56,074 bases of DNA from Psammoneis japonica. Its lineage: Eukaryota. Location: NCBI GenBank assembly GCA_008632985.1, contig QPGO01000078.1:310001-366074 (forward strand). The letters run 5' to 3'. The notes beneath the pieces were generated by a model. That model saw only the letters and a list, made by a program, of their open reading frames with translations, was not told the origin of the DNA and ran no database searches. Positions within the stretch are counted from its first letter, which is position 1; the number at the start of each line of letters is the position of its first letter. The translations under genes were made by a program, and so were the position numbers. Positions 657 to 56,074 of this stretch are shown here, one piece after another.

Positions 657-2335
657 ATGTCTGCTCTCGCCTCCACTCCTCCTGCTGACGTCAAGCTTTT
701 AGCTCAGGTCCTTCATCCCACTGACCTGCCTGATGTGCCTGCTGTTGCTCTTACGTCTGATGTCATTCGCGACATCGTTCTCAAGACGCCAGAGCATCGT
801 GGCCGGCGTGTCTCTCCGCTCCTCCTCACTCTTGGCTCTGTGACGCTTGCTGAAACCAAGAAACGCTCCTGCCCCCACCAGAATCAGTGGGCGTCTTACT
901 TTCACGTTGCTCTTCACCCGGTGACGCCCGATGGCACCACCTTTACCTTCGAATCCTTCCGCAGCCAAGCGCTCTCTTTTCTCCTTCAGAAATGGCATCT
1001 GCACCCTGCGTCGCACTTCACCCCCTTCCGCTCCGCTGGCTCCCCTTCCAATTTTCTCCACCCTGACTTCTCTCCGGTTTCGGCTGTGGACAATCCTTGG
1101 GCTGACACTGCACCTTTATGATCCCGGCCTGCAACTCTTTCGATGAAAAGGCTCATGGCATCCTTGCTGCCCCCTCCCCAACCCTCTGCGGTTCTTCTCG
1201 ACGTGCTTCTGAGTTTCTCCCATCCCGCCTTTGTTCCTTCCTTGTTGGCAAGATTTCCAGCACTGCGACCAATCCCATTCTTCAATCCTTCTGAGACTGT
1301 CCCACCTTTCTTAATCTCATTGGAATTCGTCCTTCGCAACACCCTGCTAACTCGGCCCAAGCGCGACGCCGTTCTCTTCCGGTTTTTTACATTTCTGCTG
1401 CCTCCGATGCCGTCTGGAACACCCCACTTCATGTCACCAATCCATCCAATGCGCCACCTGCCTCCTTCTCCATCCTGGGGACATCCACTGCCATCATTCC
1501 CTTCCCAGCCCCGGCCAACTTTGCTTCTACCTACAACGCCCTCTCCGAGCTCATTTCGCATCAGAGCAACATGAAAGTGGTTGTCTCTGACCGTCTTCTC
1601 CTTCCTCTCACCCAACCTGGCATCAGTCGTCTCCTTGCTGCAACCAATCTTCGCTCCCTTGTCCCCATCTTCTCTGCTCATGACTCCCTCCCAATCAAGT
1701 GCAAGCTGCTCTTTTTCCCGTCTCCATGCACAATTGCTCTTGTGGATGCCAACCTGCACAACTGTCCCGGCTTTCCCTTGGATCTCCTTGCCTCTGCGGC
1801 GGAATCTACCCATGACGACAGCATGGCTTCCCCATCCTACGCCTCTGCTGCTCTTCAGCCGCCTGCCCCCTCTCGAGATTCTTTCTTGTGTCGTGCCCTT
1901 GAGCTGCTTGCTCAAGACTGGCATCTCCCCAAACCCCAAGATCCGCTCCCTGCTGCTGCATCTCCCTCCTCTCATCCTCCCCAAGCCCGCTCCCTCACCA
2001 CCGAGCCTCCTCCCTCCAAGCGTCCCCACTCTTCTCCCGACACTTTCTCTCCGCCCCCTGCCATTCCCACCGTAGTTGTGCAGACCTCTCCGCCCCCCAC
2101 CACTCCCGATGCAATTGTGCAGACCGAATCTGATGACTCGGTTTCTCCTCAGCAGTCCCAGCGCGAGATGGAACTCTTGGATGTCCTTGATGCCTTCGTA
2201 GGTGCTTGCTGCCCGGCCCGCCTTTCCACCTGGCAACCTTTCTATGAAGAAGCCATCCGGGCTGCAGCCCCTGATGTCGACTCCCTCCGCGATCTCATCG
2301 CCTCGTGGAACCCACCGAAGCCCGTGCCCCGCTGA
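657..2335 (+). pseudogene. Frameshifted N-terminal coding region (ORF1 or 5' part of the polyprotein) of the CRE-like element
   Basis: Three consecutive or overlapping ORFs in different frames (657-1121, 1143-1574, 1571-2335) run directly into the RT ORF and share its composition. No recognisable domain. Confidence 0.45.
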
Positions 2336-5300
2336 CCTGCCCCTTCTGCTCCTGGTCCCCTCCTTCCATTGATGCACCATCTCTTCCCACCACCACATGC
2401 AGCCATCTTCGCCAGGAGCATCCCTGCCTCTCCCTTTCTCATGCACCTGCGTCCTTCTTCGATGCCGCTGGTTTGCATGTCTGCAGGCATTGCAATCACA
2501 GCCAATGCACCTGCCTGTCTGCCACCCACCTCCGCAATCACTTGCAGAACAAGCACTTTGCTCCTCGCTCTTCCCTCAACACTGACACTGTTCTCTCGTC
2601 CTTCCACAATCCAGGTGACTGGGGCCCCTTGCTACAATGGCTCCATGCTCTTGCACTCAAGCCTCCGCCTTTCCGAGCTTCCTGTCACCGCAAGCTCTCG
2701 TCCTCTGCCCGCAAGGAACTCTGCTCCGCTCTCCATCATGTGACAAGCTGGGCACTGGCCGCCTCCCAGCCCCTGTCTGACCCCTCCCATCTCATTCCTA
2801 CATGGCAACGTGACTCTGCTCCCTTCTGGAAGCTTCTCTCACTCTTTGAAGCTCTCATCCTTGCTCCTGTCCCGCCACGCTCCAAGTTTGGCCCTGCCAT
2901 TGCCTCCCGCTTGTCCCTCTTCCGCCGTGGCTGCATTCGCCAACTCTGCCACGAAGCCCACTCCCATGCGCCGCACCTCTCCTCATCTTCCCCCGACTTT
3001 TCTGCTTCCACCCATTGCTGTTCCGCTCAAGTCTGCGCCGACGAAGACAACTTTCACTCGGCCCACTCCAAGCTCACCTCTGCGCTTCCTGTTGCTGCCG
3101 TTGCTCCTGAGTGCCTTCCTGCCATCCTCAAGCTTCACCCTCCTCGCCTGCATCCCTCCGACCTGCCCAATCCTCCTTCAACTCGCTCGGCCTCCTCCCT
3201 TCATAACGAGCCCATTGAGCTCTCCTCCGACGCTCTTCTTTCTGCTCTCTCCAAATGTAAGCCTGGGACTGCTGCCGGTGTCTTTGCTGATTCTACCAAC
3301 CTCTTCAAGTCCTGCGCCCTTTGTTCCACCAAAACCCCAACAGGAGTTGCCCAACGTCCCTGCTTGTCATCCTTCCGTGAGCTTGTCCTTCTCCTGCTCC
3401 ATGGCTCCATTCCTCCCTCCGTCCATTCCTTGTTTGCTTCAAACTGCTTTGTCGCTCTGCGTGAAGATGCCAGCGACCTCAACAAGCTTCGCCCCATTGG
3501 CGTCGGTGCTGCTCTCCGTCGCATTGCCGGCTCCGTCGTCATGACTCTCTTTGGCTCTGCATTTGCCGAATGCCTCCTCCCAGATGGCCAATTTGGCATT
3601 GGTGTCAAAGGTGGCCTTGATTATCTCATTCACTCTGCTCTTGCCAACATCGAACGACATCTTTCTTCCGCCGACTCTGCCAAGGTTCTTCTTCTTCTTG
3701 ACCTCACCAACATGTTCAACGAAGCATCCCGAGATGCCTGTCAACACGTTCTCACCTCCACCCCTGCCTTCCATCCTCTGCTTCCTTTTTTTGACCTTCT
3801 GTGTCAAAGTTCCAATGCATGTTGGTGTCGCCGACCTGATTCTTCCTGGGGCTCCTTTCTTCAAGAAGAGGGATTTGCCCAAGGATGCCCTCTCGGCCCT
3901 GTCTTCGCCAGCCTGGTCCTCTCTCTGGTTCTCCATCCAATCAACCGAGAGCTTCAAGAACGAATCCCTGGCCGTTCCTCTGTCTCAGTTGGCTCCTGCA
4001 TTGATGATGCTCACGCTTTCCTTCCCCATTCCGCACTCCCATGGTTCCTTGAACGCTTCTCCGCCCTCGGCGCTCCCTGCGGGATCTCCCTCAACCTCCA
4101 TAAAACCAAGATCCTCACCTCCATTGCCAGTGTTAGCCCCATCCCTGCTCTTCCCCCTTCCCGTGCCGATTCTCTCCATGCTGCACTTTCCTTCTTAAAC
4201 CCCACCAATGACCCCTCTTGCAACCCCGAACTCACCTCTGGCGTTCGCTTCCTCGGACAGCCCCTCGGCTCCCACGACTTCGCCACCTCCTTCCTTTCCG
4301 ACACTTCCTCTGCTCTCTCCGATGAAGTTGACATGCTTCTCACCCGTCTTCATGATGAACAAACCCAGGCTCAACTCTTCAAGCACTGTTTTGTTCCATC
4401 CTCTGCTCACCTCCTTGGAGCTGACTTCTGCTGCAACTTCGACCCCGATGATCCTCCCGACCCCTTTCTCTGGACCTCTCCGTTTCAAGATTTCCTCCTC
4501 ACCGTCACTCACCGCTTTCTTCACTACGTCACTTCCTTCGCCGCTCCTTTTCCTGACCATTCTATTGCCATCGCCTTCCTTCCTGCCTCCTTGGGCGGGT
4601 TTGGTCTCCGGGATCCAACAGCTGCTGCCATTCCTTCCTTCTTGGTGTCACTTCTCCGCTCGTTCCGCTTTGCTTCGCACGGTGTCAGCCTGCCATCTGG
4701 CGCTTCTGTTTCCCTTCCGCGCTGCTTCCGGCTCTCCCCATCTTCCTGGTCCAACCCTCGCTCTTCCCTGCGACTCCATACGCTCTTCCGCCATCATGCT
4801 CCTGTTCTGGCTTCCGCCTCTGCCCTTTCCTCTTCTTCCTTGGCTGCCCTGGTTAAATCGGCCACTCTCCCTGGCCTGGCTCGTCGCCTCTGCCATGAAC
4901 ATCAGCAACAAGCAGCAACCTCCATCCTTGCTAACTCATCTTACGACGTGCAATCTTCGCTCCCTTCATTGCTGTCTCCGCTCGCAAGCCTCCCTCTTCA
5001 TTCCTTCTCCCGTCGCTTCCCAAGCTCCCGCCTTTCTTCGGACGTCTGCGTCATTGCCGCCCTTCGCAAGCTTCATCTCCCCATCCTTCCTCCGTCCCTT
5101 GTCAACACTCCCTGTCCCTGTGGCCATGCCATCCTGGATGCCTGTGGTGATCATGCCTTTTCTTGCCGCCGTGCTCACAAGTCCAAGCTCTCCAATGGTC
5201 TCCGTGATGCTGTTTTCATCCTGGCCCAAACTTTGGGTCCTCTTGCAGAGTTCTGTCGATCCCCCAATGACGTTCATCTCGAACCCACCAACCTGCTCCC

Positions 5301-6036
5301 CACCCGCCCGCTCCTCCGTCCCGCCGATGTCGGCATTTTAGTCCCCCCTCCCGCCTCCCTTTCCGCTCCCTCCCGCCACCACTGCATTGCAGTGGATGTT
5401 GCCATCCCCCAAGCTTCCTCTCGCCCTCCTCCAGGTCTGCCTGCCCCCTCTTCTCCCATCTTAACTGAGGCACACCACTCGAGCGCGAGATTGAAGTTTC
5501 TTGGCCCCTCTACTTCCTCCACCGATGGATCCCTTGTTGTTTCTTCGCTCAACAACAATGGCATCTTTCTGCTCCCCTTCACTGTAGATCACCTTGGTGG
5601 TCTCGGCTGCTTTGCCCACCGCTTGCTCTTTGGTTCTACATCCTCCTCCGTCTGCTCTCAGCCCAAGCCACCCTGGTCCTCTTCCTCCGACTTTCGTCAC
5701 TCCGATGCCTCCTACTCCGCCTTCCTCTACGCTTTATCGTCTCCGTCTGCAATCCTTCCCTCTGCTGACTTCGCATGGCGTCGCCTGTCCGCCGACCGCT
5801 TTGGGAACACCTACCGCACAGCCAACCCATCCCAGTGGGCCACCCAAACTCTTGGCTACAACGTCGTTCTTCACCTTTCTACGCACATCCTCCGATTCAC
5901 TTCCTCCCTCCCTGCCCCCTCCTCACCCATACCATCCTCAAAACGCCCTTCGTCTTGCGTCCTTCGACCCTTCTACTCTACCGTCTCTACAGCTACCTCC
6001 GTGCCTCCTTCTGCTGTTCCCTTCCGCTCTACATAG
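2305..6036 (+). pseudogene. Zn-finger / reverse transcriptase / RLE polyprotein, inactivated by Tyr->Cys/His changes
   Basis: N-terminal C2H2-like motifs (CPFC..HLRQEH, CRHC..HLQNKH). RT motifs KLRPIGVG, QFGIG, LDLTNMFN, GFAQGCPLGP, CIDD (expected YxDD; 3997-4008), GISLNLHKT, FLGQPLG, LPASLGGFGL. C-terminal CPCG..DHAFSC knuckle and RPAD..AVDV RLE motif. Confidence 0.88.
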
Positions 6037-6215
6037 GCTCCCTTAATCTTCTATTTTAAACGGCAAACAGCAAGAAACAAAAAACATAGGAAACAGGAGC
6101 GGTTGAGTCAGTGGCATTTTCATCTGACTGCCTTTCATCGGACGCAATCATGCAACATGGTATGCTACTTTGAGCTGCGTTGCTGTAGACACGTAGAAGC
6201 TTTGATGAAGCTCTT

Positions 6216-9200
6216 ATGTTTGGGCTAATCACCACCTCATTGGCCTTGTTGCTTTTTCCTTTCGAGCTTTCTTTTTCCTTCGTTTCATCCCGGTCCGTTG
6301 TACAACAACAACGACAGAATATCTTGAGAGAGATGTCAAGCGGAATGGCTGACGATAATTCTCAAGCCCGCTCGTCTATGAACAGACTCACTTCCTTGTT
6401 GAAACGACATCAGATTGAGTACCAAATTATTTTGGTTTCTTCGAGCGGACAAGAAACCGCAACAAAAAGTTCGAGCAGTGTCATCTCGATAAAGACACTT
6501 GTCTGGGAAGCTTCACCTCAAGAAATCAACAATGGAGACTTTTCTCTTCAAGCGCCATTTTACTTTGTGACTGCCATAGAGAGCTCGAAGAGAGTAAATG
6601 AGAAGGTCCTGACAGAGATTATTGAATCAACATCAAGTAGTACCGGCACCAAGATGAATGTAGCACTGGCTGAAACGGCTACCGCCGAAAGATTGACGGG
6701 ATGTGTGAAAGGAACAATTCCTCCATTTGGCCATGTAGTTCCTATGATGAACCTGTACATTGATGAGTCAATTATTCATTCCGAAGTTTCTCATGTAAGC
6801 GTTGGGTCAGGAGATGTCGGGTACGATTTGGTGATATCAAAGGCAGATATGCTGCAGCTATGCGATAAAACAACACGTGTCAAAATCTATCCCATATCTA
6901 ATGGTAGCGAAGCCTCCAGTGTGATTCATGAAATACCAATACCCAAGCCAACAAAGAGAGCCAGTAAGCAACAACGTCCGTTGAAAAAACCAGTCAGAAA
7001 TTTGGGGAAACGATTACGTGACGCTGCAGGAAAACGAGGAAAGGGTGACGAAGTGCGAGAAATTATAGAGGAAATGGGCGACGACTTTCCAGCGTTCCTC
7101 AGCGTGGGTGCGGATGGGAACTTTACAAAAAATGCGTTGCATTTGGCAGCTTGGAAAGGTGACCTGGAATCTATTCAACTGATCGCAGACACGGGCAAAT
7201 CCTTTGGACTCGACTTGGTCAACGAGATAAGCACCGGCCAAGGTAACTACGGGAAAACCCCGGTTTTCTATTCCATGACTCAGTGCCGAGATGATGCTGT
7301 AAGGCTATTGGTGGAGCTTGGATCCGATTTACTTATCGTTAACAACAAGGGGCAGACACCTTGTAGTATGGCACCAAGTCATATGAATCGTACAACTTGT
7401 GAATACCTCTACAACATGGAGGCGAGGCAGCTCGATGCGGGTGGCACGTTTGTAAACTATCGTGCCACTCATTCGGATGGACAACAATACGGTGACTTGG
7501 ATCCGCGGTTTCCAATCGACAAGGAAAACATGGGAGCTGACATTTCGGACGAGATTGCAGCCTATCGACAGACTCTTCAGTTGATCAATGGCGACGAACC
7601 GCAAGACATACCACGTGGATCTGGATTCCCACGAAGCCTCCGACAAACCACCAGAGAGTCTCGAGAACAGCGCGGTCTTGGTTATCGAGTGAAAACGATT
7701 CGCGAAGAAACGAAAAAGGACAGAAGCATTGTCCCTCGGGAAGAACGGCAAGAAAGTCCAACACCAAAGCCGTCTGCCGGTCGAAGAAGGAAGAAAACCG
7801 CGGTAGCACCACCGCCGGTGATAGATGTGACGAATTTAGACGTGTTGAGAATAGCAGATGTCTTGAAGGGAGACCCTGTTATAGTTGATAATGATCAGGG
7901 GATAGAAGAACTCTCTCTGTGTATTGATATTTCAGTAGCAATGGATGCCGAGAATCATCCTCACGAGACAACCAAGAAGCACTATCCATCGGATGAGTAT
8001 ATAGCAAAGCATTGCTGGGGGCTCGACTGTGAATGGAAACCAGCATATGAAAAAGGGCAGGACCATCCGGTTGCAACCCTTCAACTAGGTACCCATGACT
8101 TTGCCTTTTTGGTTGACGTACAGCAGCTATGCCAGGCCAATATCAAGACCTCGGACCATGAAATGACTGAAAAAGAAAAGAAGCTATCGAAAACTCTTTC
8201 AAGGCTTTTTGCGGATCCCGACACGACAGTTGCTGGATTCGGGATTCAACAAGACTTGAGCAAACTGGCAATGAGTTTTCCTCACATGCCATGCTTTCGT
8301 TTGTTTCAATCCGTCATTGACATTCAGCTCATATCACGAAATGCTTTTCCAGGAAGTCGCAAGGATTTTATTAGAAGTTTGCAAATAGCTGTTGCAGTGC
8401 TGCTCGAGCAGCGTCTCGACAAAAGCGAACAAATGTCGAATTGGCAACAACGACCGCTTTCAGCCTCGCAAATTGAGTATTCACTCCTCGATGCCATTCT
8501 TAGCTCCTGGTTGTTGACACTCATGGTTGAAAAGATTGCATCACTGGACTTGTGGGAAGGCCACTTTTTCAAAAAGCACTCGCACTTGCGAAGCACCGTT
8601 CGCATTCAGTTTCTAGATTGTCCTGGTGAGAACTCCATCCCAATGGCATATAGAGTCAGCATGGGTTCAGTGAGACAGATACTGTCTCTTCGTTTTGCTC
8701 GGCAAACGTGGCCAACAGGAAGGGAACCCCCGCCACTCCCAAGTCGGATATTGATAGAAGAAGCTGAGCAGCAGCCTCGACGAAATACGAAAGTTGCAAG
8801 CCGCAACCGAGATGCCAGTTCCCCTTTGCGGGCACAATCAAAAAAGAAAAAGGGAGTTCCGCTTTGTACACTTCCCGGAGACCATGATAACCTGCCTCCT
8901 GTCGGAGGGACGCTCGGCTGGACAAAAGATACATGCGTCGAGCGAATCTTGGGTAGGCAAGTCCTAAGTTCCATGCCTGAAGAGTTTAAGCTTCAGTACA
9001 ACCGTTGGGGAGGAGTCATTGAAATGTCAAACTCGTGGTTGCTCTTCATCAACTTTGCGGCTCAGAGGGAAGGATCTAAATATCAAAACAACTTTTCTGA
9101 TGACGGTCGCGAAATAACATTCTCTGTCAATCCCGACCGCCCTCAGGAGCAGGCGTTGGTTGAGTGCCTGACAGGAGATAACCAGAAAAGCGAAAACAAA

Positions 9201-9407
9201 GTTTTCCTCTTTGCCAGACCGGATAATCGTGAAAAGTTTCTGTTTTGTGGAGAGTGCATTTGCAACAAGCACACCCGAACAGAAGTTGGTGTGACTCTTC
9301 ACCTAGAGCTAATTAACCACGATACACTAATGAAAGCTGAAGGCGACCTGTGGAAGAAACTTGTGCAGTGCAACAGAGGCGGGGAGCCACCGGCGTCTCT
9401 CGACTAA
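6216..9407 (+). CDS. Multidomain protein: YbaK/aminoacyl-tRNA editing-like domain + ankyrin repeats + DEDDy 3'-5' exonuclease (EXD3/MUT-7/WRN-like) + C-terminal DUF3427-like domain
   Basis: Intact 1063-aa ORF. YbaK motifs IKTLV and GTIPPFG; ankyrin ALHLAAWKGD and GKTPVFY..LLVELGSD..NNKGQTP; exonuclease motifs GLDCEWKP, GIQQDL, SNWQQRPL..QIEYSLLDA. C-terminal KYQNNF..LFAR..FLFCG resembles DUF3427 (weakest call). Hydrophobic N-terminus. Confidence 0.85.
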   Translation: MFGLITTSLALLLFPFELSFSFVSSRSVVQQQRQNILREMSSGMADDNSQARSSMNRLTSLLKRHQIEYQIILVSSSGQETATKSSSSVISIKTLVWEASPQEINNGDFSLQAPFYFVTAIESSKRVNEKVLTEIIESTSSSTGTKMNVALAETATAERLTGCVKGTIPPFGHVVPMMNLYIDESIIHSEVSHVSVGSGDVGYDLVISKADMLQLCDKTTRVKIYPISNGSEASSVIHEIPIPKPTKRASKQQRPLKKPVRNLGKRLRDAAGKRGKGDEVREIIEEMGDDFPAFLSVGADGNFTKNALHLAAWKGDLESIQLIADTGKSFGLDLVNEISTGQGNYGKTPVFYSMTQCRDDAVRLLVELGSDLLIVNNKGQTPCSMAPSHMNRTTCEYLYNMEARQLDAGGTFVNYRATHSDGQQYGDLDPRFPIDKENMGADISDEIAAYRQTLQLINGDEPQDIPRGSGFPRSLRQTTRESREQRGLGYRVKTIREETKKDRSIVPREERQESPTPKPSAGRRRKKTAVAPPPVIDVTNLDVLRIADVLKGDPVIVDNDQGIEELSLCIDISVAMDAENHPHETTKKHYPSDEYIAKHCWGLDCEWKPAYEKGQDHPVATLQLGTHDFAFLVDVQQLCQANIKTSDHEMTEKEKKLSKTLSRLFADPDTTVAGFGIQQDLSKLAMSFPHMPCFRLFQSVIDIQLISRNAFPGSRKDFIRSLQIAVAVLLEQRLDKSEQMSNWQQRPLSASQIEYSLLDAILSSWLLTLMVEKIASLDLWEGHFFKKHSHLRSTVRIQFLDCPGENSIPMAYRVSMGSVRQILSLRFARQTWPTGREPPPLPSRILIEEAEQQPRRNTKVASRNRDASSPLRAQSKKKKGVPLCTLPGDHDNLPPVGGTLGWTKDTCVERILGRQVLSSMPEEFKLQYNRWGGVIEMSNSWLLFINFAAQREGSKYQNNFSDDGREITFSVNPDRPQEQALVECLTGDNQKSENKVFLFARPDNREKFLFCGECICNKHTRTEVGVTLHLELINHDTLMKAEGDLWKKLVQCNRGGEPPASLD

Positions 9408-9516
9408 CTATTAAAGTAGACGACAGTCGTACCTTAGGTCACAAAAAGTAAAATACTTTTTAATTTTAACAATTCGCAATTTTGACACATACATAGAAAG
9501 GCAGTAACATCATTGG

Positions 9517-11403
9517 CTACACTTCCATTTCCTGTCGAGTTTTGCTCCTCCCTCGTCTGGAAGAAGAAACTGAAGAGTCGTTTCGTCCGGGACTCCGGGG
9601 AGCACTCTTGCTTCTTCGATAAGGACTGCTGGTATCCAGTACGCCCTTGTCACTATTGGTGGCACAACTAAAGGAACTTGCAATCGTTCGAGCCTGTTGG
9701 GCCAAACCACTGCCTAGCGAGGCGACTGAGCCGGGGCCTGACGACCGATTGGTATGCCTGCTGCGAATCGAGTCAATCGTCATTGGGTAGTGCGAGTCAT
9801 CGTCATGAGATCCCTCCAAACCAGAAATGGTGGAACGGGCCTGATCCATGTAGTCTGCGCCTTTTCGAGTTTCTTTCAATTTCATATACTTCTTCTTGAA
9901 AATGTCCGTTTGGTCACGAGAGTTTGTTAACTTTTCCTCCCATTCCTAAGTTACAGTTGTGTACCGGTGATTCAAAAGAGTGAGAAATAGGCAATAGAAG
10001 CAAAATTCGTTCGTTCTTTTACATACCGCACGAGCCATGAGATATTCGCCCTTCAATTCGCCCAAGGCGTGTTCTAGTCTCTCCTCATTCTTTGTCTGAG
10101 CCCTCTGAGCTTCTGAAAGCGCCTCCCAGAATCGTTCCGCCACATTCTGCAGGGGCGTGTCATTGTAAATGGGTGCCGAAAGCACTTCCTTCATTTCCTC
10201 CACCAAACTCGCCAACGCCTCTTCGGAGCTCTGCACCACGCCCGCTTGAGCATGACCATTCATGGAAGGATGCTCCTTTGGCTTGGTAAGGACACAGTCG
10301 CCTCGTTTGGATGGATCGGGCAGAGTGGCACCCGCACGTAGTCCGGATCGTAACACATCATCCATGGCATATCGCAAAATGGCACACGCCCGATCTGGTG
10401 TCATACTTTCTGCTCGAGCAATTGATAACTGGAGACGCCCACGATGATCAGAATCCACGGGCAACAACGCGGATGCCGAATTGCAAGCTTTTTCATACAA
10501 GGCAAAACACTCATCGAACTTGGACGAATCCCGAAGAGGCGCCCCCTCACGAATAGCTTCTGTCAAGACGTCCTTTACGTCTTGATCAATAAATTCCTCG
10601 TGCCGTGTCGGTCCTCCCGGAGACGCCACCACATCCTGCACAGCCGCCGCCGCTGCGTTTTTCTCTTCCGGCTGTGCTGCTTGTTTCCTCAATTGATTCA
10701 TTTCTTCCTCCCGTCTTGACGCTTCAAAGGCGGCACCCTCCATGTGTGCCGCTTCCACCACGTGCTGAAACAATTTCTGAACATCCGCAAAGGCGTCAAT
10801 AATGGCCTCGCCCATGACATCATAACCCGCATCGTAGTGCTCCATGAGGCGTTCGGCAATCGCCAACAAACCATCTTCGTGGCCAGATAGAGCGTCCACC
10901 AAGAGTTCCGGTGTCACGACGGCTGCGTCCTGAATATCATTATTTTTGGGTGGTGATGATTTGACCGTTTTTGGTTTCGAAGTAGGCACTTCTTTTTTAT
11001 TCTGAACAGGAGAACTCATTCTGTTGGGACGCGGTGATGTAACTCGTTCAGAAGAAGTTCTTTTCTGAACTACCTCGTGACGAGGAGACACTACACGCTG
11101 CTGCTGCTGCTCTACTGCTATAACAGGACTCTCGTTTCGCACAGATTGTAGCGCCCGTTCTCGAGTGGATATACGATTGCTCCGTCCGACACTCTTACTG
11201 CGTGGCGATGCGTCTGCGGCAGACGTTGGGCGCTTTCGTTCCAATGATTTCGATCGCTGTCTAGCTCGTTCGTCAATCTGACGATTATACGCTCGTGCAC
11301 GCTCCAAGACAGAAGAACGAGCGGCAGAACGATTGGATTTTTGTGATGTCGTGGACCTAGCTTCGTCAAAATTGTTTGTATCCATAGCAATAACTATATG
11401 CAA
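9517..11403 (-). CDS. Hypothetical coiled-coil protein, 2 exons (11403-10027, 9945-9517)
   Basis: Two minus-strand ORFs are joined in frame by an 81-bp GT-AG intron (10026-9946). The start may instead be the ATG at 11385. Confidence 0.8.
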
Positions 11404-13048: not shown

Positions 13049-14306
13049 TCAAACAGTCTCAACCCAATATCCATCTCGTTTCTTCTTTCGGCTTCGTGTG
13101 TTTCGTTGTCTCGACTTGCGTTCGGAAACCTCCGTCCAGGCATTTAAATTTCTCGCACTCGGGTAACTCCCCGCGTCCGTCATTTCTCGCAGTGCATCCA
13201 CGGCACCCGCCCAATCTCCGTCGGAAACGGCACCCTTGACAAGGAGCGCATACGAAGCCTTGTCACGAGCGCTAATGTCGTGAATGTTGAAGGGGTCGTT
13301 GCCGTTTTCATCTTCGGGGCCAGTGGTGCGCTCCGTCAAGTGCTCCTTGAGCAGTACCGAGGCATCCGAAAGGAGTCCCAACGACTGGTAGGCTGCAGCC
13401 AATGGGTTCAAATAGAGAGCAACCAATGGTAAACCGTGATTTTCCTGTAGTTGGAAGAGCGAGAAAGCAACGCGGTATGAACAAATCAGTGAAGTACTCA
13501 GTTCGTGCTGGTGACTTTGTCTATTGAGTTCTTACCTCAATGTCCAACACAACGTTTCGACAAGCATCCAACGGCACTCGTCGTTCCTCTACAGAATATT
13601 CTCTTCCATCCAATTCCTTACAACCTCGCACACTGGCGCTAATGAGCGACATGATCATGTTGTCTGTTACTTCCACGTTGCTTTCCTTTTTCGTCGCTTG
13701 ATTGACGACATCTCCGTAGATTTCCAATGCCTTTTGCCATTTGGCCAACTTGGCACACGCCAAGAGAGCCCCCTCATAATGTATATTGGATCGAACAATT
13801 TGCAGCGTTCGTTGTTTGCGAGTCTCATCCAATTCCAGTGTCTTCATGCGCTCGTACGTTCGCAAGGCGTGTCGCCACAGACTGGGCTTGTCGCGTTTGC
13901 GAACATTGCGCCATATAATTCCCGCATAGCCCTGATTGTTCATAATGGGTGCCTGTGTACGAAACGATGGATTCACGTCGGAGATACCCGCGTGCGGATG
14001 CCATCGTGGCAAAACATTGTTGGGACTACTGCTCTGCTTTGCAGCTGTTTCCTGCTCGTCCTTGTTGTTGTTGTTCCAAACCATCATTCGTCGAGCCATT
14101 TCAAACAAGAGCCCTTCTCCGCCACCCAACGTTTTTGTCGGTGGATCGTTGTCTGATGATGATTCCAATCCATTGTTGTTGGAAGAAGCTTGCAACGCAA
14201 CACAAGAACGTTGTGTTACAGTGGGTGCAGCGACAAAGGCATTGACGGAAATTCCCAGAGGAGTCGCAAGGATTGCCGCCAATAATGCAAGTTGATTCCA
14301 TCTCAT
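13049..14306 (-). CDS. Putative plastid-targeted PPR-like helical repeat protein, 2 exons (14306-13536, 13444-13049)
   Basis: Signal peptide ending VNA-F. PPR-like segments (HYEGALLACAKLAKWQKALEIY; SYALLVKGAVSDGDWAGAVDALREM). In-frame 91-bp GT-AG intron 13535-13445. Confidence 0.8.
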
Positions 14307-14628: not shown

Positions 14629-15852
14629 TTACAGCGCCACACTTTCGCCCGTTCCTGGTAATAGCCCGTTCCCAGCACTCGCAAAGGGCAAATCGCTTGC
14701 CAATTCGTCATGAATGCTGCCCAGCGTGTACTTGCCAATATAATCGGGACGCAAGTTTGGCTTGTGTGCCAACTTTTTCTCCGCCTTTGGGTTGCGAAAG
14801 GTCACATTCAACAACAGACGCAGCGCTCCATTCTTTAATTGATTTTCCAATCCGGCATGGAGCGTGCGCATATCAAACACCACCGCGTCACCGGCTTGCA
14901 ACATGGTGTATTGAGGTTTGGACGCTCGCAGCATGGCATCCCTACTTTCGCCCATGTCATCAAACTGCTTCCGCTCTGCATTTTCCACATGAGTTCCAGG
15001 AAAAAACATGGTCCCGCCCATTTCAAACGAAACATCCTGCAGAGCGATAAAGGCGGAAAAGAGACCGGGTGTTTCTTGAAAGGGTGTGTCGGAATGCACC
15101 ACTTGCCGACCGGCCCCGGGTTGGGTACGAAGCGCACAAAAGTCATATAATTGCGAGTCGTTGCCATCGCACATGGTTCCAAACAAATCGTTGAGTTGCG
15201 AGCCGGGTTGTAAGAGCTCGCGAGCGGCTTGTACAATTGGGCCGTTCGTGTATTCATTACCATCTTTTTTCTCCTCCTTGTCGTCGTCAACAGAATCACG
15301 CAAGGGCAGCAGCACGTATCCTCTTGGTGTTGAAAAGTGTATATCGGCAGGAACATAAAAGAGACTAACCGAAAGGGATGGATCCTTACGAATGGCCGTC
15401 CGCATGAGTTCCAATTCGTGAAGCACCGCTTTTCGACACGCCGCCGCCGTTTCTTTTGATAAAACTCCAGGAACCAGCACGACGCCTTGTTCTTTTAAAT
15501 TTGTAGCTAGCAATTGTGTTGCAGGATTTAATTTGATTTCAGAAGATGATGATTTTTTGTTCTTGGTCGAGCCTCCACCAAATCCCGTTCCTGCTGCCGA
15601 ACTGCGCTGCTTTTTCTTCTTCTTTGCTTGTTTCATTTCCTTCATTCTAGGATCCAATATTCGTTTTTCCTCTTCGGCTTGTTGTACAAGGCTACGATGT
15701 TGATCGTCAAAGAGCATGGCACGTGCCGCGTCCAGGCCGTCGCTGGAACTGTAGAGAGAAGTTGTTGTTGTTGTTGTTTTGGTTGGAACATTTCGAGTGT
15801 TGCCGCCCACAGCGATCCAAGCCAGCGTTTGGGCTGGCTTTAAAAATAGCAT
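14629..15852 (-). CDS. Phytanoyl-CoA dioxygenase (PhyH)-family 2OG-Fe(II) oxygenase
   Basis: 407-aa ORF with GVVLVPGVLS, Q..HSD, IALQDV...GGT and AGDAVVFDMRTLHAG...R motifs. Confidence 0.85.
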   Translation of the reverse strand: MLFLKPAQTLAWIAVGGNTRNVPTKTTTTTTSLYSSSDGLDAARAMLFDDQHRSLVQQAEEEKRILDPRMKEMKQAKKKKKQRSSAAGTGFGGGSTKNKKSSSSEIKLNPATQLLATNLKEQGVVLVPGVLSKETAAACRKAVLHELELMRTAIRKDPSLSVSLFYVPADIHFSTPRGYVLLPLRDSVDDDKEEKKDGNEYTNGPIVQAARELLQPGSQLNDLFGTMCDGNDSQLYDFCALRTQPGAGRQVVHSDTPFQETPGLFSAFIALQDVSFEMGGTMFFPGTHVENAERKQFDDMGESRDAMLRASKPQYTMLQAGDAVVFDMRTLHAGLENQLKNGALRLLLNVTFRNPKAEKKLAHKPNLRPDYIGKYTLGSIHDELASDLPFASAGNGLLPGTGESVAL

Positions 15853-15956
15853 GAGCTTTTATATAATATCCTATCGAACGAATATACTCCTCTTTTAGGC
15901 CCTACATTTCGTGGTTGACAAGTGCAATTCAAGTCAGCGGTTGCGAGTTGCGACCG

Positions 15957-16244
15957 AGTCACGAGTCAACAACCGAGTCTGATTCACGGATGACGCTTCC
16001 GGTCATGGATCTCTTCTTCCGGAAGAAATGTCCGTTGAGTCTACTAGCGATAGTAATCGGAGTGACACACACGACCGTTAGGTCATAATGTCATCTCCAA
16101 TCCCTCGTGAGATCTTCTCACAATTCGTATCTTTAGCGTATCTTATTGTCCCAAACCCACTTCTTATCATCCTCTGTTGTATTGTACAACCTCAAGAGAG
16201 TCCTGAACTCTCCATCCTACACAGTGTGTTGTTGTGTCCCAAGT
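15957..16244 (+). repeat. 5' LTR
   Basis: Ungapped direct repeat of 22912-23199 with 18 substitutions by manual alignment. Confidence 0.95.
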
Positions 16245-16256
16245 GGTTACGACCCC
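16245..16256 (+). other. Putative primer-binding site (GGTTACGACCCC)
   Basis: Lies directly 3' of the 5' LTR and resembles the GGTTATG-type PBS of copia elements primed by a tRNA fragment. The cognate tRNA was not verified. Confidence 0.5.
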
Positions 16257-37276: not shown

Positions 37277-38190
37277 GTGAAAGTGCATGAGGAGGCCCTC
37301 AAGTCAATCCTTAGGACTCTACCCAACATCAAGGCCAGAGCCATCCAATGTGGCAGCAAGACCAGAGCATGGCCATCAGCTCACCCATCGACACTGAATG
37401 GCCGGGAACTCTCATGCCCTGAGTTCCATGGTGTGCTCTGCTTTGGGCATGGCGGTGCTCCGCCGGGGACCCACCCAAGTGCTGTGATGGATGCAGGCAC
37501 AAATTCTCCGTCAACCATGCCCTTCACTGCAAGAATGGTCCAGCTGTCTCATGACATGATGAAGAAGCACACGTGATGACCCATGTGACCTCGTTGGCGA
37601 GGCTTGCTTGCAAGCCTTCCTGCACTCATGATGGGCCCCTGATTGACCCCGCTGGTCACCTCTCTCAGGAAGCTCAAGCACCTCCAACAGTCAATCAGGC
37701 AGCACTGACTCCAACATGTCTGAGGATGGAGACAATGGAGATCTTCTCCCCTTTGGATTTTAGGACAGAAGGACAGACACCATCATGGACATCTGCACTC
37801 CAGACACAAATGCGACATGGAAGTTGCGCCTGTCGAAGACACCAGAAGAAGTCCTGGCAACCCACAAATGTGAGAAAAAGTGCAAGCACCTCAAGCCCTG
37901 CCTTGAGCAAAGATGTCACTTTGCTCCAATCATTGCATCATGCAATGGGCTGGTTGGCAATGAAGAAGAGGCCAAAGTGGTGCTGTGCACGATCTCTTCT
38001 CACGCAGCTGACAAGTGGCAGAAAAGCCATGTTCAGAGAGGTGTGTGGCTGCGTCAATGCAGAACGTGCATCACGACAGCATGAGCAACTCATCATTGCA
38101 TCAGAAGGTCATGCATCTCCTCATCTTAGATCAGCTCCAGGCATCCCCAGTGGGAAGCAAGATGGTTCTGGTCTGTCACTTTGTTGACAC
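37277..38190 (+). pseudogene. 5'-truncated relic of an RLE-type non-LTR retrotransposon (C-terminal Zn knuckle/endonuclease)
   Basis: Pieces NGRELSCPEF, CDGC..FS..HAL.CK, DLLP/GF and DICTPDTNA..PEEVLA..EKKCKHLKPCLEQRCHFAP..SCNGLVG match the recalled C-terminus EKKRKYL..C...RRHFTP...DG. Confidence 0.7.
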
Positions 38191-39703
38191 CAAACTGCCT
38201 GAGTTGAGCTGGGTCTCCCTCCACAGGATGGAATTCTGACCCCTGATCATCAGCTGTGACCAAAACTGTGCTCCCATGATGGCCACATCCACACCAACAC
38301 AAGAATGGTTGCTGCGCCACAGTCCATGTTTGCTTGACAACTGCCCCTTGCTCACATGACTGCACTGTTGACGGCATGATGCCCAATGTCTCTGCTCATG
38401 CACAGACCCGCTCTGGAGGGGGTCTGTGCACTCTCATGGAAATGTGTGTGTTTTGCACCACGCAAAATGCCCCTTGAACCTTCTCCGCCAAGCAGGCAGG
38501 TGGCAGGTGTGAAAAACATTTCATGTCCAAGAAAGAGTTTGTTGGGGCTGACAAACAGCATTGACCCCTGCAGTGCCGCTGGTGCAAAATCTGCACAAAT
38601 GAAGAGACATGCTCTGGAGCATGTCTGTGCAAATTCAAATTCACAAAAGACAAGCAGAGTCATTCAGTGAATCAAACATTGTCATCATTTCATTCCAATT
38701 GTCTCAAGGTTCAACAAAACAAAACATCTGCCATCACGGAAACAGAGCAACCATCACCAAAAATGGATCCTGCCTTCTTTGCGTGCAAACAACTGAGTGA
38801 CAATGCCCAACAACACCCTGGCAAGCAACGTGAGTGGTGTTCACTGATCTACAAGCCGGGGTTGCAACATGCAATCAAAGTCATTGGATGATGTGCTGCG
38901 TGCTTTCATTTCTGGGTCAAGTTGTTGGTTTCTTCTCATTGCTCATCATCACAGATTTTCCTGCAGGGCATGGCCAGCTGTGTGCTGACCTTGAACCTGA
39001 CATCAGAGGTGGGTTCCATGCAGGTTTGGCACTGATCTGGTGGTGGGGGGGGGGTTCTTTCCTCAAATGCAGGGATGACCCACATTCAATGCAACAAACC
39101 TGCATTTTTTTTGCACAACCCTCCTGGCTGACTCCCTTGGTGCCTGCATGACTCCTGCAGCATGCTGAAATTTAGTTGGTGCTTCCTGGATTTAATTTGT
39201 CCCACTCCGCAGGAAACCAAAACATTCTTCCAAATTCTCCCAGAAGTGCTCTTCCCCATGTGTTTTCCACACAGATGTGCTGCACAAATCACAAGCTTTT
39301 CTGTGTGATGCTCTTTTTTTGTTCCAATTGCCAAAAATGTTGCTTGCAAAAAGAGTGGAAATGTGTGCCCAGGTTCCTTCTGGTGGTCACCAATCACCAT
39401 GGTGTGCTGTTGTGGTGCTGAGTTGGCGAAAAAAGAAATGAGAAACTAGATCAGTTGAGTGCTGTGGCATCATCATGCCAAAAGCAGCCAATGAGAATGT
39501 GCACCCAGGTGGAGGTGCATGATCTGCACATGTTGTCACGTGTGGGACTTCACTTTGTGTGTTTTTGCATGACAAAGCACAACATGTTTCACAGATCAAC
39601 TTGGTGCATGACTGCCCTTTCCCATGTTGTGTCAGAGGGTGTGCCCACCAACATGGGACTTTGGCCCAGGGTGCCCTGGAGCAACACTCAACTTTGCCAC
39701 CAG

Positions 39704-39793
39704 ACTTCATTTGGGGCAAAACTTGACTTTGGGACAAAACTTGGTGTGAAACTCAACTTTGGAGTGAAACTTTGCTTTTGTTCAAAACTTGAC
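39704..39793. repeat. Degenerate ~18-bp tandem repeat (ACTTTGGnnCAAAACTTG-like)
   Basis: Four to five imperfect units visible. Confidence 0.55.
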
Positions 39794-40820
39794 GATGGTG
39801 ACCTGGGGTGCATGAAGCATGTGCAGTGCAGTTGACACATGGACTCATGATGAAAAGCAAGACCCGTCACACTCATGGAAATTGGGGTGCAATTTGGGGG
39901 TGCAAAAACTCACATGTCATGCAAATTTGCACCCCAAAATTACAGGTGATTTTTGCATGAGTGCAAGAGTGTGAAAGTTGACATCTGCAATTCTGCAAGA
40001 AATGGCACATGCATTGGACACAAGCTGCTGAACAATTGTTGACAGCGGAGCAGGCAGGAATGACTCCACACCTCCAATTTTGGTCAACTCATCTGCACGT
40101 GAAGCTGAACATCCCAATGAATGCATCAAAAACACCATGGCATTCAGTGGCTCCGCTGTGACCTTGTGCACATCAAATCATTGTTCTGACAAGTCTGGTT
40201 GATTTGCAACAACATGATTGGCATCACATGTTGCCGTTGCACCCACAGGCAAGGTTTTTTTCAGTGACCACATGATGTGTTTTTCTTTTGAAATGGTGTG
40301 AACTTGCCTTCATTTTGTTGTCCCTTGACGGCAATCTCACTTTCATGAACACGTCACAATGGCTCTCCAGCAACCAGCAACAAGTTTTGCATCTCACATT
40401 GATTGAAGTTCATTGTTGATTGTTGGTTGCCATTGTTGCTTGACATTCTGATGTTTGTTGCCATCACAGATGATGATGCTGATGTGAGTCCATTTTTGTG
40501 CGAAAAATTGCAGGCAAAAATGCATGTCTCTGGTGGCCGATTTGTTGGCTGGAGATTCTGGCAAATCCGTTGAAGCTGTTGCGGGGCCCGCACAGCTTCT
40601 GGAAGGTGCATGTTGGCTTTCTTGATTAATTGACAAATGCATTTTGAATCAAAACGAGCAGTGAAGAAACACAAACAAATGCGTGCGTGGATGTGCACAT
40701 GTTCCATTTGCTCATGCGTGCACACACTCTCTTTGCACAGATCCCATTGCCTGATTTACATTGGTGTCATCCAGCATTGTTGGTTGTGCAACTGGAATTG
40801 AAAAAAGTTAAAACTGCATG

Positions 40821-41158
40821 GTTTCAATGGAAATCTGTTGAAACTAAATCCATTGAAACTGCCAAATCCATTGAAACTGAACATGGCACACAGCATTCAT
40901 GCCCACCACAGGACTGCCCTCCAGCTGGCACTGGCTCTGGCTCTCCAGAGCCTCGCAATTGGTCGTGGCATTGGAAAATCATTGAAAGCACTGAAAATTG
41001 TTTCCACAGTTTCAACGGAAATCTGTTGAAACAAAAAATGTTGAAACCACACAGTTTCAATGGAAATCTGTTGAAACTGTTTCTGTTGTTGAAGCTGAAA
41101 ATGTCGAAACTAAAAACATTGAAACTGTGCAGCTCCAACGGAAATCTGTTGAAACTGC
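40821..41158. repeat. Cluster of palindromic 24-bp repeats GTTTCAAYGGAAATCTGTTGAAAC plus many TTGAAAC half-sites
   Basis: Copies at 40821-40844, 41009-41032, 41054-41077 and 41132-41155. Confidence 0.8.
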
Positions 41159-42417
41159 ACAGGACAAGCAAATTGCTTTCAATCTAAAACACTTGACACT
41201 CAACAAACAACTTGGCATCAATTGACACGCAAGAACACTCTGTGCATTTACCTTGGTTAACTGACAAATGTGTGTGACACTTTAGAGGCTCTCATCAACT
41301 TGTCATTGTGCACCCATTGTGTTAAATTTCACAATTAGCGACAATTGTCTTTGATCATGCAGAGCTTCATAGAAACTTGGCGCACCTTCAACAGCACTCA
41401 GAGATCATCAGAAACATGGGAGTTCCCTCCTTCTCAAGCAGCATGAGTTCCCATGTCAACATGGAATGCCTTGGGTTTGATCTAAGTGAAAAGAGATGCA
41501 TGCCACATGTTGACAATGTTTTAGTTCCAAAACAACAATGATCCTTGGCATGATCATGGCTGGATTCAGTCCTTCCATGACAAGCTGATGGTGGAGAAGG
41601 AAATGGTGTGGCTTGATCTCTGCCACACTCACTTTGCCGCACACAAGTGGATCACAAAACATCCTGAAAGACTGACTGCATGGTTCAAAAAATTTGAGTG
41701 AGGGCCAAAAGTAAAGAAGGCATTGCCTGCCAAGAGGTGCACATCATGCATGAAGGAGACCTCTGCTTGCTTTACTAAATGTGTTAGCAGTGCATGATTG
41801 CCATTCCGCATCATTCATTGCAGCGCCACATGCATTGCGATCATTGAGATGGTGGGCTTGTAGATCAAATGGACAATGACAGATTTGTGGCACCAAGAGT
41901 TGGAAAGTCCGATTTGGACTCTTCGGACCCCTGGTGGGAGGAAGAACATGATGATGAGATGTCGGTATCATTTATAAACTACACCTGGTGCAAGGGTGAA
42001 AACTCTTAAGTACTCGACATGCAGTCGAGTCTCTGCCTCTGGGCAGGCGGCAACGGATCAATAGGACGGCCAGGGAGTGACGCCTTGAACTACATTTCCA
42101 CCGAATAGTGTAGGCGCTCCCACCCGTCAATCCTCGTTCCAAGAACAATATCATACAAGCACTCATCTCACAAAACTGTTCTGTCGGAGTATCACAGCGT
42201 TTTATTTTTACCGCTTGTTAAAAGAATACAATGTTTTTTGGAAGGTATTTCTCTTCGTTCAAGGACGCATTCAGAATATGTTATGTGTCTGACGCTCATG
42301 TCAGTTACTTGCAGAGACATGGATAGACCGCTTTCAAGATCCATTACATCACATGCACGTGCATTCATCAAAGACAATTATCAACAATCAATAATGCAAA
42401 CAAAGGACTAATCATGT

Positions 42418-53279: not shown

Positions 53280-54474
53280 ATTGAATGACAGATGGACGCA
53301 CGGACGGGAACGTGCAACAGACACGCACCGCACACCGCACGGTGCACATGCTCTCTCGTTCGCTCTCTGGCCAGAGAGCAGTGCTGTCTGCTTCTGCCAC
53401 AGCTGGCAGCTGCTAGCTGCTGAGAGACAGCTGCTGCTTGGGTGGAAGACTGCAGCACAAAGCATGCAGAGAAAGGAGAAAAAATGAAAACATGACAATG
53501 AAGGGCACGGCGCCACAGCATCATGCGCCATTGGAGCATTTGTGAAAAACAAAAAAATGGGCATTTTCCACACAAGCAATTGTGTGCATTCACATGGACA
53601 AGCATGCACATTTTTTGTGCACAGATTTGTCTGACAAACAGCAGGTGGCCTCATCTGACAAGTGCTGTTGAACTCACAAATGTTCAACCAAAAGTTTTCT
53701 CAGGATCAAACAAGAAGCACAGCAACGCCTGGCCTTCTCCCCCCACCACAACAAGGTGCGTTCAATGATGAAAGCAGTTGTGCCATGAAGGCTCTTTTTC
53801 TTGGTTCTCATCACACATTTTTTGTTGCAGCAAAAGAGAAAGGCAGCAATCTCAACACATGCTGCACACACCACACACACACACTTGTTTCATGTTTGAT
53901 GATGCGCAAGTGTGCGCACTGGGGTGGCCAGCATCACAAACAACAGCTTGGCTGCCACAACATCTCACATCAGTGCCACAACAGTGAAACCACATTGTGC
54001 AGAGCAATGCCTTGTTTGTTCAATGTTTTGTCGCAACAGCACAGCTTGCATTTTCTCTCTCTCTCACATTTTTCTTTGTGCTCGCACATGTGCACGTCAC
54101 ACAGCATGGGATGAGAACAGCAGCTGGCGTGGCTCTTCCAGGGGGGCAGCAATGACAACTCAACCAATGTGTCTCAAAGTTGTTGCACCAGTGCCAGTGG
54201 ATCCAGCGGGCATGACAGACTCAAGAACAAAAGATGCGAAAAGGAGCCAAGAGCACATCAAAGAAACTTCTGGGAGAGCCCACCAGAGAGAACAAGAAGG
54301 CAAAAAGAGCACATGAGTGACCTGCAAAAGAGAGGCGCAAGTGTGCAGTGTGTGTGTTTTGCAGCATCACCTTGCACTTTTTTTGTCTCTGAGCAAGTGC
54401 TTTTTTTTCTTCCCCAAAGCACGCCGCAGCAGTGACTCTGCTGTGGATGCTGTGACTTTGGCCTTGGCTTTCTC

Positions 54475-54506
<32 letters not shown>

Positions 54507-56074
54507 GTTGTTGTGCCCACTGCTTTGCCCATTGCTTCATTTTTCTGCCATTCTTTGCAGGTGCATTTGCCTGTGCCCCCTGTTCTGTGACAAAGCACAG
54601 CTGCCAACATTCATCTCACTGGATTGCAGCGATGCTTCCCCACTGTCTTTTGAAGCACCACACATCAAGATGGACATTTTCCCTGCAATTCTGCCACACC
54701 GGTTGGTGCTGTGCTGGGAGTGTGGGTCAATCAAGGCAAGTTTTTGGACACAACAGCACTTGAAACACAGATTTGAGTTGAGTTTGCCTGTGGACTTGCA
54801 CATCTTCTTCAAAACAAGGCAATTTTTGAGTTGTGCAGCTCAACCTGGTCAGGCACTCTCACCTGCTCAAAGTCCAGACAGCTGCTCCAGATGTCAAGAA
54901 CACAGAGTGGAGCTGAGTTCATGGGCAGTGGCAGCATTGTGCCACATTTTAGTGTGCATGTGATTTGATTTGCTGAAGAGTGCAGGGCATCAAAAAAGAA
55001 CAGTTGTTGAGTTTTGTGCATGCATGTGACTGCAGTGACAAAATGTGCATCACACAGCACACACAGATGCACAGGTGAAGAAAACCTTGCAACTTGTCTC
55101 TGAAAAATTCCTTGCAAAGCTGGGTTAAAAACACATTGTGATGTTCAAAACAATGGCAGCAGCAACAGCACAGCAGCACAACAAGATTTATGAATCCCCC
55201 CTCATGTGCAACACTGGCGGCACAGCATGAAATAAAAACATGTGCAGTGGTGCAGACTTTGAGGGAGGCAGGTTGTCAGCAAGTGTGGGATTTCTTGCAC
55301 ATGAGAGAGTGACCTTCTTGCAGAGATGAAAGGCTGTTTTGGTCAAAAGATGAAATGGGCCTCATCACAAGATGTGCGCTTTTTGTGCGCTGCACACAAG
55401 GGAGTGAGAGATGATGAAAAGGTCACTTGTGCTGTCCCTCAAGAAGTGCGATGATGCAAAACACTGCATGGCACACAAGCAACCCTGTCCAACGATGACA
55501 TTTGTTTCTTGGCAGAAGAAAAGTGTTGGCTTGCTCAAGTCAAATGAGCTGCAAAAAAAGAAAAACACCATCAAACACACGGCCTGTTCCAGCTCCAGGT
55601 GCTCCGCTCGGGTTCGATTCCCATCATTTGGCAGTTTGTGCTGCATTTGGCGCAATTGACTTTTTCCAAATCCGTTTTTTGCCAAATCGAAGGGCAAGTG
55701 CACACTTTGCATGTGATTTTGGGTGCACACTCACCTTTCGATTTTTGAAACCATCAAAATTGAAGGAGTTGATTGCACCAAACTGCGCAGAAAATCGGCC
55801 TCTCGTGTGATGAAAAGTGGATCACCTGGAGCTGGAACAGGCCACACTCAAATCAAGGGAGTGCAGCTCAGTGCAAGCAGACCCCTTGGTTTCCTGAATC
55901 TGGCATGGAAACCAGATTGCCGGTGCTGCAAGAAATGTCATTGAGTGTGTTCATGAGCATGTGCTGCCACTCATTTTGTGCTGCCCCTCTCTTCTTGTCA
56001 TTTTGCTGTTTTTTCCCAACTTGTTTGCAGAAAAAGAAATGTCCTCTCAAGTTGAAAGCCACTCTGGTCTGCTC
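53280..56074. other. TpA/CpG-depleted, TG/CA-rich decayed block (probable transposon relics, family not identifiable)
   Basis: Very few TA dinucleotides over about 2.8 kb; composition matches the identified TE relics. Confidence 0.65.
54475..54513 (+). repeat. (GTT)n microsatellite
   Basis: Directly visible, with one interruption. Confidence 0.9.

Follow-up and report, generated by a model that had tools for sequence, protein, structure and literature searches.

Genome defence by mutation of the invader is a textbook theme, exemplified by fungal repeat-induced point mutation (RIP) and by APOBEC editing in animals, both of which deaminate cytosine. The removal of TpA by A:T→G:C transitions was reported only in 2026, for one alga, the chlorarachniophyte Bigelowiella natans, and mainly for viral inserts, in the main text of a preprint that describes how integrated viral DNA undergoes TpA→TpG/CpA hypermutation (Mettrop et al., bioRxiv 10.64898/2026.01.13.699255). 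According to that text, 231 of the 302 nuclear point mutations in mutation-accumulation lines of B. natans lie in two integrated viral regions; 230 of these 231 are A→G or T→C, the GC-biased ones all occur at TpA, and the rates are about 1000 times the baseline, in some of the lines only. The main target is silent and present in a single copy, reverse transcriptase (RT) and DDE domains are over-represented among TpA-poor coding sequences, and an ADAT2-like protein is named as a candidate. The same main text leaves diatoms and the flanking-base context unmentioned and deals with strand only in the form of TpG and CpA outcomes.

Here we analyse a 56,074-nucleotide stretch of contig QPGO01000078.1 (positions 310,001 to 366,074, forward strand), deposited for Psammoneis japonica under assembly GCA_008632985.1 and called the window below, in which host genes alternate with TpA-depleted blocks of mobile or presumed mobile DNA. 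The window carries the B. natans signature at saturation, in three transposon classes and apparently in another lineage, and it adds a context rule and a clue to targeting. We consider it likely that a host process converts TpA to CpA or TpG in integrated mobile DNA and leaves the neighbouring host genes untouched. An initial annotation, made from the sequence letters, had known of no description of the pattern in diatoms and asked for a literature check; our literature search found one description of the signature, the B. natans preprint, which puts any general claim of a first description out of date, and none for diatoms.

TpA loss in the blocks and its polarity

The observed/expected ratio (rho) of TpA in sliding windows, read together with maps of the individual TA sites, delimits five TA-poor blocks at 1–5400, 16420–23200, 25400–34900, 37400–41700 and 53400–56074. 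All five had been recognised in the initial annotation, and its start for the first block needs correction, from 2305 to the window edge. Pooled, the blocks hold 156 TA sites in 27,112 bp (5.8 per kb, TA rho 0.10), as against 969 in 25,804 bp of host DNA (37.6 per kb, rho 0.55), while the rho of CA+TG is 1.58 in the blocks and 1.17 in the host, which bears out the TA depletion and the TG/CA richness first claimed for them. The depletion of TpA in these blocks is real and strong. Neither AT (rho 0.88 in blocks, 0.91 in host) nor AA (1.30 and 1.18) nor TT (1.14 and 1.22) is depleted in the same way, and the loss is therefore specific to TpA rather than part of a general drift from AT to GC; GC-biased gene conversion was dropped on this ground. 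The four host segments of the window keep a normal TA rho of 0.53–0.71 right beside the blocks, and several of the block edges are sharp, as at the consecutive TA sites 37320 and 37761.

Tyr makes up 0.6–0.9% of the residues in three element open reading frames (ORFs), as against 1.9–2.1% in four host ORFs, and Cys and His are elevated in the element ORFs. Because TAA and TAG are gone, long overlapping open frames run along both strands of the blocks, and an open frame inside a block is thus no sign of an intact gene. By the genetic code, TA→CA/TG is itself unable to make an in-frame stop, and the damaged elements remain open. The CpG rho is 0.24–0.38 in the three older blocks and 0.71–0.90 in the two younger elements.

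The direction and timing of the change can be read from copia element 1 (15956–23200, plus strand), a retrotransposon bounded by long terminal repeats (LTRs). An ungapped comparison of the LTRs, together with the TA map, places the 5′ LTR at 15956–16245 and the 3′ LTR at 22911–23200, and the 5-bp direct repeat GACCG, a putative target-site duplication, lies at 15952–15956 and again at 23200–23204. Between the LTRs are a leader (16246–16417), which keeps TA at six sites (16248–16403), and the polyprotein region (gag, pre-integrase, RVT_2; 16418–22875), identified by Pfam RVT_2 and gag_pre-integrs matches. The latter contains N gaps at 20226–21125 and 22215–22560 and is TA-depleted (TA rho 0.16–0.18), yet its frame is still open.

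The two LTRs of one insertion are identical at the start, and the pair serves as an internal clock. Each is 290 bp long and they now share 93.8% identity. Their 18 mismatches are all transitions; 17 lie inside the 34 bases of 17 TA-derived sites, and the remaining 256 bases account for a single one (Fisher p = 3e-17). Of the 17 TA sites, 14 have changed in the 3′ LTR (12 to CA and 2 to TG). The 5′ LTR has kept 14 of its 17 ancestral sites, and the three that are mutated all fall within its last 90 bp. At two sites one LTR reads CA and the other TG, for which a TA ancestor is the sole explanation. Expressed as rates, the pair shows about 0.22 changes per TA base and 0.002 per other base, an excess of roughly 100-fold, and all 14 CpGs are identical between the LTRs. 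The changes were made after insertion and far faster than CpG decay, which argues for burst-like hypermutation rather than slow erosion. Codon selection was dropped as an explanation because non-coding LTR sites are affected.

The initial annotation had offered error-prone repair synthesis by a Y-family polymerase, recruited to silent chromatin, as one possible route; Pol eta, with its WA→WG signature, is the model, and A→G after a 5′ T belongs to the WA motif. The lone LTR difference outside a TA site, at 16182, would also suit such an enzyme: it is a T/C difference (GTATTG versus GCACTG) that reads as A→G after A on the opposite strand. With AA and TT retained in the blocks at the ratios given above, however, the motif is TA and not WA, and the change is near-saturating and, in the LTR pair, purely transitional. 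We regard a polymerase origin as very improbable. The 16182 change has a mutated TA site on either side and may have arisen off target in the same event. Just beyond the 3′ LTR, the AT-rich stretch 23300–23500 has a TA every ~4–7 bases (35 TA in 23401–23700) and is fully spared though it touches the mutated LTR.

Protein relatives supply a second measure of direction. With a consensus column defined as at least 60% agreement among five or more relatives, four element types contain 19 consensus-Tyr columns, in which Tyr is kept once and is replaced by Cys or His 14 times, by Phe twice, and by Leu and Arg once each; across all residues, the window keeps 481 of the 633 consensus columns. In copia element 1 alone, 1 of 11 Tyr columns is kept versus 210 of 298 columns overall (Fisher p = 2.9e-5). 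Eight of the altered motifs listed in the initial annotation, CIDD (3997), HVDD (21787), FETC, PHGL, MHLA, CEDN, CHWFR and LRHEIG, are present, and their Cys or His aligns to Tyr in the relatives. Among the 152 differences from consensus, 65 are revertible by one transition, and these divide into 25 of TA type, 17 of CpG type and 23 others. The protein searches returned no close copies, the best matches being at 59%, 53% and 47% identity.

Copies from the genome itself were taken from contigs of a public run in which the host part of the window is matched at a share of 0.99. Variants among these copies are transitions at 422 of 479 places. Forty of the 485 variant rows break down as follows: in 8, other copies have TA where the window has CA or TG, and in 1 the reverse holds; 4 form two TG-versus-CA sites; 6 are of CpG type; and 21 are of other kinds, many of them from one diverged contig over 1–342. 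The TA→CA/TG change is thus established as polarised and post-insertion. The proposal in the initial annotation, an A→G change at 5′-TA on either strand of integrated DNA that destroys conserved residues, agrees with the LTR pair and its target-site duplication, with the Tyr columns and with the DNA-transposon relic described below.

As a control, 78 of 80 related metagenome copia loci have a TA observed/expected ratio of 0.44–0.88, so the depletion is not a native trait of that lineage. An origin with no mutator at all, through native TA avoidance by selection or base composition or through an assembly artefact, could appeal to host DNA being itself moderately TA-poor (rho 0.55) and to one metagenome relative, L005, with a TA ratio of 0.18. 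Such an origin is scarcely credible. Besides the TA-normal relatives, it is contradicted by LTRs of one insertion that differ almost only at TA sites, by the replacement of catalytic and conserved Tyr, by other copies in the same genome that have TA at the CA/TG sites of the window, and by block edges that match element structure; an artefact is further opposed by the public run that carries the host part of the window.

The copia loci from the metagenome scan are all distant ones. Two low-TA loci stand out among the 80, L005 (1776 bp, CpG 0.10) and L023 (TA 0.28, CpG 0.25). L005 was not taken as a clear second case, most of its conserved Tyr being kept. Separately, conserved Tyr is replaced by His or Cys in the metagenome proteins P0007, P0009, P0235 and P0236 (SLHGL, MLMHL, ACIDD, DATC), and the same kind of damage may occur in other organisms.

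Element classes and relics

A non-LTR-type retroelement occupies 1–6060 on the plus strand. Its body (1–5400) has a TA rho of 0.17, and its ORF at 2305–6036 matches Pfam RVT_1. The RT motif of this ORF reads SCIDD at 3997, relatives at 33–47% identity have Tyr where the window has LLC, CWC, SCIDD and LPH, and all three consensus-Tyr columns of the element read Cys. The 3′ end (5401–6060) is the most repeated part, with a summed contig depth of 5808 in bin 5337–6003; its TA density is back at host level from ~5700 (11 TA in 5701–6000), the copies diverge at 6040–6063, and it adjoins the start of the host gene 6216–9407.

Several further features of this region are recorded here. The sense strand of 1–5700 is extremely pyrimidine-rich, with a G–C skew of −0.27 to −0.64 and an A–T skew of −0.2 to −0.57 in 300-bp windows, and the RVT_1 ORF is rich in Ser, Leu, Pro and Ala; TpA loss alone is insufficient to explain the pyrimidine skew. 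Upstream of the ORF, 1–2305 shows the same TA depletion, with frames open on each strand, and the cDNA-like run X2 contains a diverged copy of 1–467 (40 differences). One contig in each of runs X1 and X2 joins position 256 to 10862 via an identical stretch of 35 other letters, which reflects either a second locus or a transcript that links an element-like piece to a copy of a host gene region. In the host part of the window, X2 contigs skip 81 bases (9945–10025) and 91 bases (13444–13534) inside host ORFs, with a perfect match on both sides. These skips look like two short introns, and run X2, although labelled 'DNA?', is probably cDNA; it has no cover on 668–6003 or 16009–20000, which was not used as evidence.

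The composite old block at 25400–34900 is depleted of both TA and CpG (rho of TA 0.08, CG 0.38, CA 1.78 and TG 1.70). At 26631–27562, on the minus strand, it contains the relic of a class II element, a DDE transposase of PIF/Harbinger type, delimited by the tblastn span and the protein alignment. A search with the relic finds 961 relatives at E ≤ 1e-3; ten of them were scanned, and six match PF13359 DDE_Tnp_4. LRYE of the relatives has become LRHE; none of its three consensus-Tyr columns is kept and two read His. It is as TA-poor as its surroundings, with 0 and 3 TA in 26701–27300. Rescanning the Harbinger pieces at E ≤ 5 brought no useful match. A second, different copia-type relic, covering gag, protease and the integrase region, lies at 31479–33846 (plus strand) and was found by tblastx to the metagenome copia loci L003, L004 and L012; it has weak zf-CCHC and gag_pre-integrs matches, and none of its three consensus-Tyr columns is kept.

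When 126 ORF pieces of the three old blocks were compared with Pfam, one piece had two weak matches, and there was one further match at chance level. The blocks at 37400–41700 (TA rho 0.07, CG rho 0.25, with a sharp left edge) and 53400–56074 (TA rho 0.03, CG rho 0.24, continuing past the window end) are unclassified. Their 53 ORF pieces had no meaningful Pfam match, the single hit being a weak, chance-level SH3_19 match in 37400–41700 (E 0.0067, below the curated cutoff). The initial reading of all blocks as transposable elements is sound for 1–6060, 15956–23200, 26631–27562 and 31479–33846, while for these last two blocks it is a matter of composition only.

Site context, targeting and candidate chemistry

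The TA sites that survive in the blocks reveal a preference in the flanking bases. RTAY accounts for 7 of the 156 survivors, versus 290 of 969 host sites and 26.7% of sites in TA-normal relatives, and YTAR is enriched among the survivors (60 of 156). The same imbalance is found in the young blocks (5 RTAY versus 19 YTAR, p = 2.8e-5) and in the old ones (2 versus 41, p = 9e-16). RTAY sites are lost first, and a 5′-TAY context for A→G is equivalent to a 5′-RTA context for T→C.

Evidence for strand coherence is suggestive only. Along copia element 1 the replaced Tyr codons appear in the order HH, CC, HHHHH, CCC, that is, 12 sites in 4 runs (p = 0.075), and nearly all changes of the 3′ LTR are to CA; an unpolarised runs test on the order of CA and TG found no extra clustering (z of −1.95 to +1.42 in the blocks versus −2.06 to +0.11 in the host).

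Two parts of the elements are spared and have host-like TA density: the copia 5′ LTR with its leader (15956–16417), and the last ~350 bp of the RVT_1 element (~5700–6040). These spared ends directly adjoin host start codons, those of the genes 14629–15852 (minus strand) and 6216–9407 (plus strand), respectively, and promoter-side sparing of element ends is a lead for how the process is aimed. The summed contig depth on the first two elements is 576–5808, versus 61 over single-copy DNA, which means that both element families are highly repeated in that genome, and all verified targets are multicopy. The copia 5′ LTR and the RVT_1 3′ end have the highest depth (4380–5808), yet they are the least mutated. 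This sparing of the most repeated parts argues against copy number as the trigger, and the term 'repeat-targeted' used in the initial annotation is not supported; the main target in B. natans, as the preprint describes it, is single-copy (10.64898/2026.01.13.699255).

The process that we propose would be an A:T→G:C transition at 5′-TA, on either strand, of mobile DNA already in the chromosome. The change hits LTR, non-LTR and DNA-transposon sequences alike, and its outcome is long, open but crippled frames in which Tyr is replaced by Cys or His. The hit Harbinger relic, the hits on both strands, the changes found only in the 5′ LTR and the copies that differ at TA sites place the process in chromosomal DNA. 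Its targeting would depend on silent chromatin or 'foreignness' rather than on copy number, and element ends in host promoter regions would be protected. As to the chemistry, a TadA/ADAT2-type polynucleotide adenine deaminase that converts adenine to hypoxanthine in DNA is our tentative candidate, a suggestion that we put at somewhat less than an even chance. The natural substrate of such enzymes is A34 of tRNA, which follows the invariant U33. No deaminase is found among the Pfam matches of the window ORFs.

The strand pattern of the 3′ LTR bears on a different origin, editing at retrotransposition, in which an adenine deaminase (either a counterpart of APOBEC3 that acts on cDNA, or ADAR with RNA or RNA:DNA hybrids as substrate) would hit single-stranded minus-strand cDNA before integration. 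RNA editing is ruled out because the LTRs of one insertion differ, which cDNA editing would be able to bring about. Twelve of the 14 changes in the 3′ LTR are T→C on the plus strand, equal to A→G on the minus strand (12 CA versus 2 TG, p = 0.013), and the least change is found in the 5′ LTR and leader, a sparing in keeping with the order of conversion of cDNA to the double-stranded form under the standard model of reverse transcription. Against this, the DNA-transposon relic, whose movement involves no RT step, shows the same TA depletion. Inside copia the hits fall on both strands, with Tyr→His and Tyr→Cys interleaved, and so they do in the RVT_1 element; the three 5′ LTR changes missing from the 3′ LTR are not predicted by the model; and the B. 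natans signature, as reported in the preprint, appears de novo during vegetative growth in DNA that is already integrated (10.64898/2026.01.13.699255). On this balance, editing before integration is quite unlikely to be the source of the pattern.

A second question is which base of the TA step is altered. TA is self-complementary, and T→C by way of a modified thymine is indistinguishable from A→G on the opposite strand; the extended motif RTAY is symmetric too. The thymine of R-T-A could be oxidised by a TET/JBP-type enzyme to 5-hydroxymethyl- or 5-formyluracil, which mispairs with G or is misrepaired to give T→C. It is known that 5-formyluracil promotes T→C mutation and that 5-hydroxymethyluracil occurs at TpA in dinoflagellates. 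We nevertheless think a thymine-based route unlikely, given that the sole proposal published for the signature, in the preprint, is adenine deamination (10.64898/2026.01.13.699255).

Several points weigh against a host process of the kind proposed. No enzyme, DNA inosine or real-time mutation has been observed in the organism, and the symmetry of TA applies to adenine deamination as much as to its thymine counterpart. The polarisation rests on the LTR pair, the protein relatives and the contig variants. Among the 152 differences from the protein consensus, 87 are not single transitions, as is expected with relatives at only 30–60% identity, and the 23 transitions classed as other are unrelated to TA or CpG. 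The strand bias of the 3′ LTR, as noted, also fits minus-strand cDNA editing; the promoter-side sparing comes from two boundaries; and the blocks at 37.4–41.7 and 53.4–56.07 kb are taken to be mobile from their composition.

Meaning and relation to known systems

Taken with the B. natans report, the window suggests that eukaryotes have a widely distributed defence that has gone unrecognised so far. One could go further and suppose that TpA-directed adenine deamination of DNA is an ancient defence, widespread across the SAR supergroup or even outside it, and that in a second, diatom-like lineage it is the main killer of LTR, non-LTR and DNA transposons, with an RTAY motif, strand-coherent tracts of a few hundred bases, targeting to silent chromatin independently of copy number and exclusion from promoters; this larger picture is speculative, and we hold it to be possible rather than probable. 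The practical consequences are nearer at hand. Dating by LTR divergence will overestimate insertion ages, gene finders will call the hit elements genes because these keep long open frames, and the elements escape homology searches. Should the agent prove to be a natural DNA adenine editor specific to TpA, it would be of interest for base editing.

Deamination of 5-methylcytosine at CpG resembles the present change in that it also yields TpG and CpA, and it accounts for the low CpG of the three older blocks. It is, however, unable to remove TpA, and in the young copia element all 14 LTR CpGs are intact beside 17 TA events.

APOBEC3 and ADAR share with the present pattern a deaminase-type hypermutation of selfish elements with a dinucleotide context. 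They differ in that their targets are cDNA or RNA prior to integration, and one strand, whereas here the hits extend to a DNA transposon and to both strands, and the two LTRs of a single insertion are unlike. The 3′ neighbour preferred by ADAR is G, opposite to the TAY preference seen here. On the 5′ side ADAR favours U (as cited in the main text of 10.64898/2026.01.13.699255).

The RIP of Neurospora and other fungi offers a further likeness, with dense, context-specific transitions confined to mobile DNA, hints of strand-coherent tracts, and elements that are inactivated by mutation rather than excision. The direction, however, is opposite: RIP changes CpA to TpA and raises TA and AT content, whereas here TA becomes CA or TG. 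RIP creates stop codons, which TA→CA/TG is unable to do in frame. RIP also needs duplication, whereas here the most repeated parts are spared.

The nearest relative of the pattern is the hypermutation of B. natans, as presented in the preprint. In both cases TpA→TpG/CpA is the only change, it is confined to foreign DNA while host genes remain normal, and the long-term result is a loss of TpA with a gain of CpA+TpG; the pooled blocks of the window also pass the window thresholds of the preprint (rho TpA ≤ 0.43, rho CpA+TpG ≥ 1.52). The differences concern host, target and type of evidence. The host TpA frequency is 3.76% here versus 6.0% there, the host genes here are long, uninterrupted, intron-poor ORFs with at most one short skip in the cDNA-like contigs, and a host protein here has no identical database entry, its best match being at 63% identity. 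The targets here are LTR, non-LTR and DNA transposons near saturation, whereas the target there is a giant-virus insert with a rho of 0.45. De novo mutations were measured there, whereas the LTR pair gives an indirect rate estimate here; the window adds the proof from the LTR pair, the RTAY preference and the spared element ends. The organism of the window is thus probably distinct from B. natans, and the process is apparently of the same kind as its TpA hypermutation, a second and apparently independent instance.

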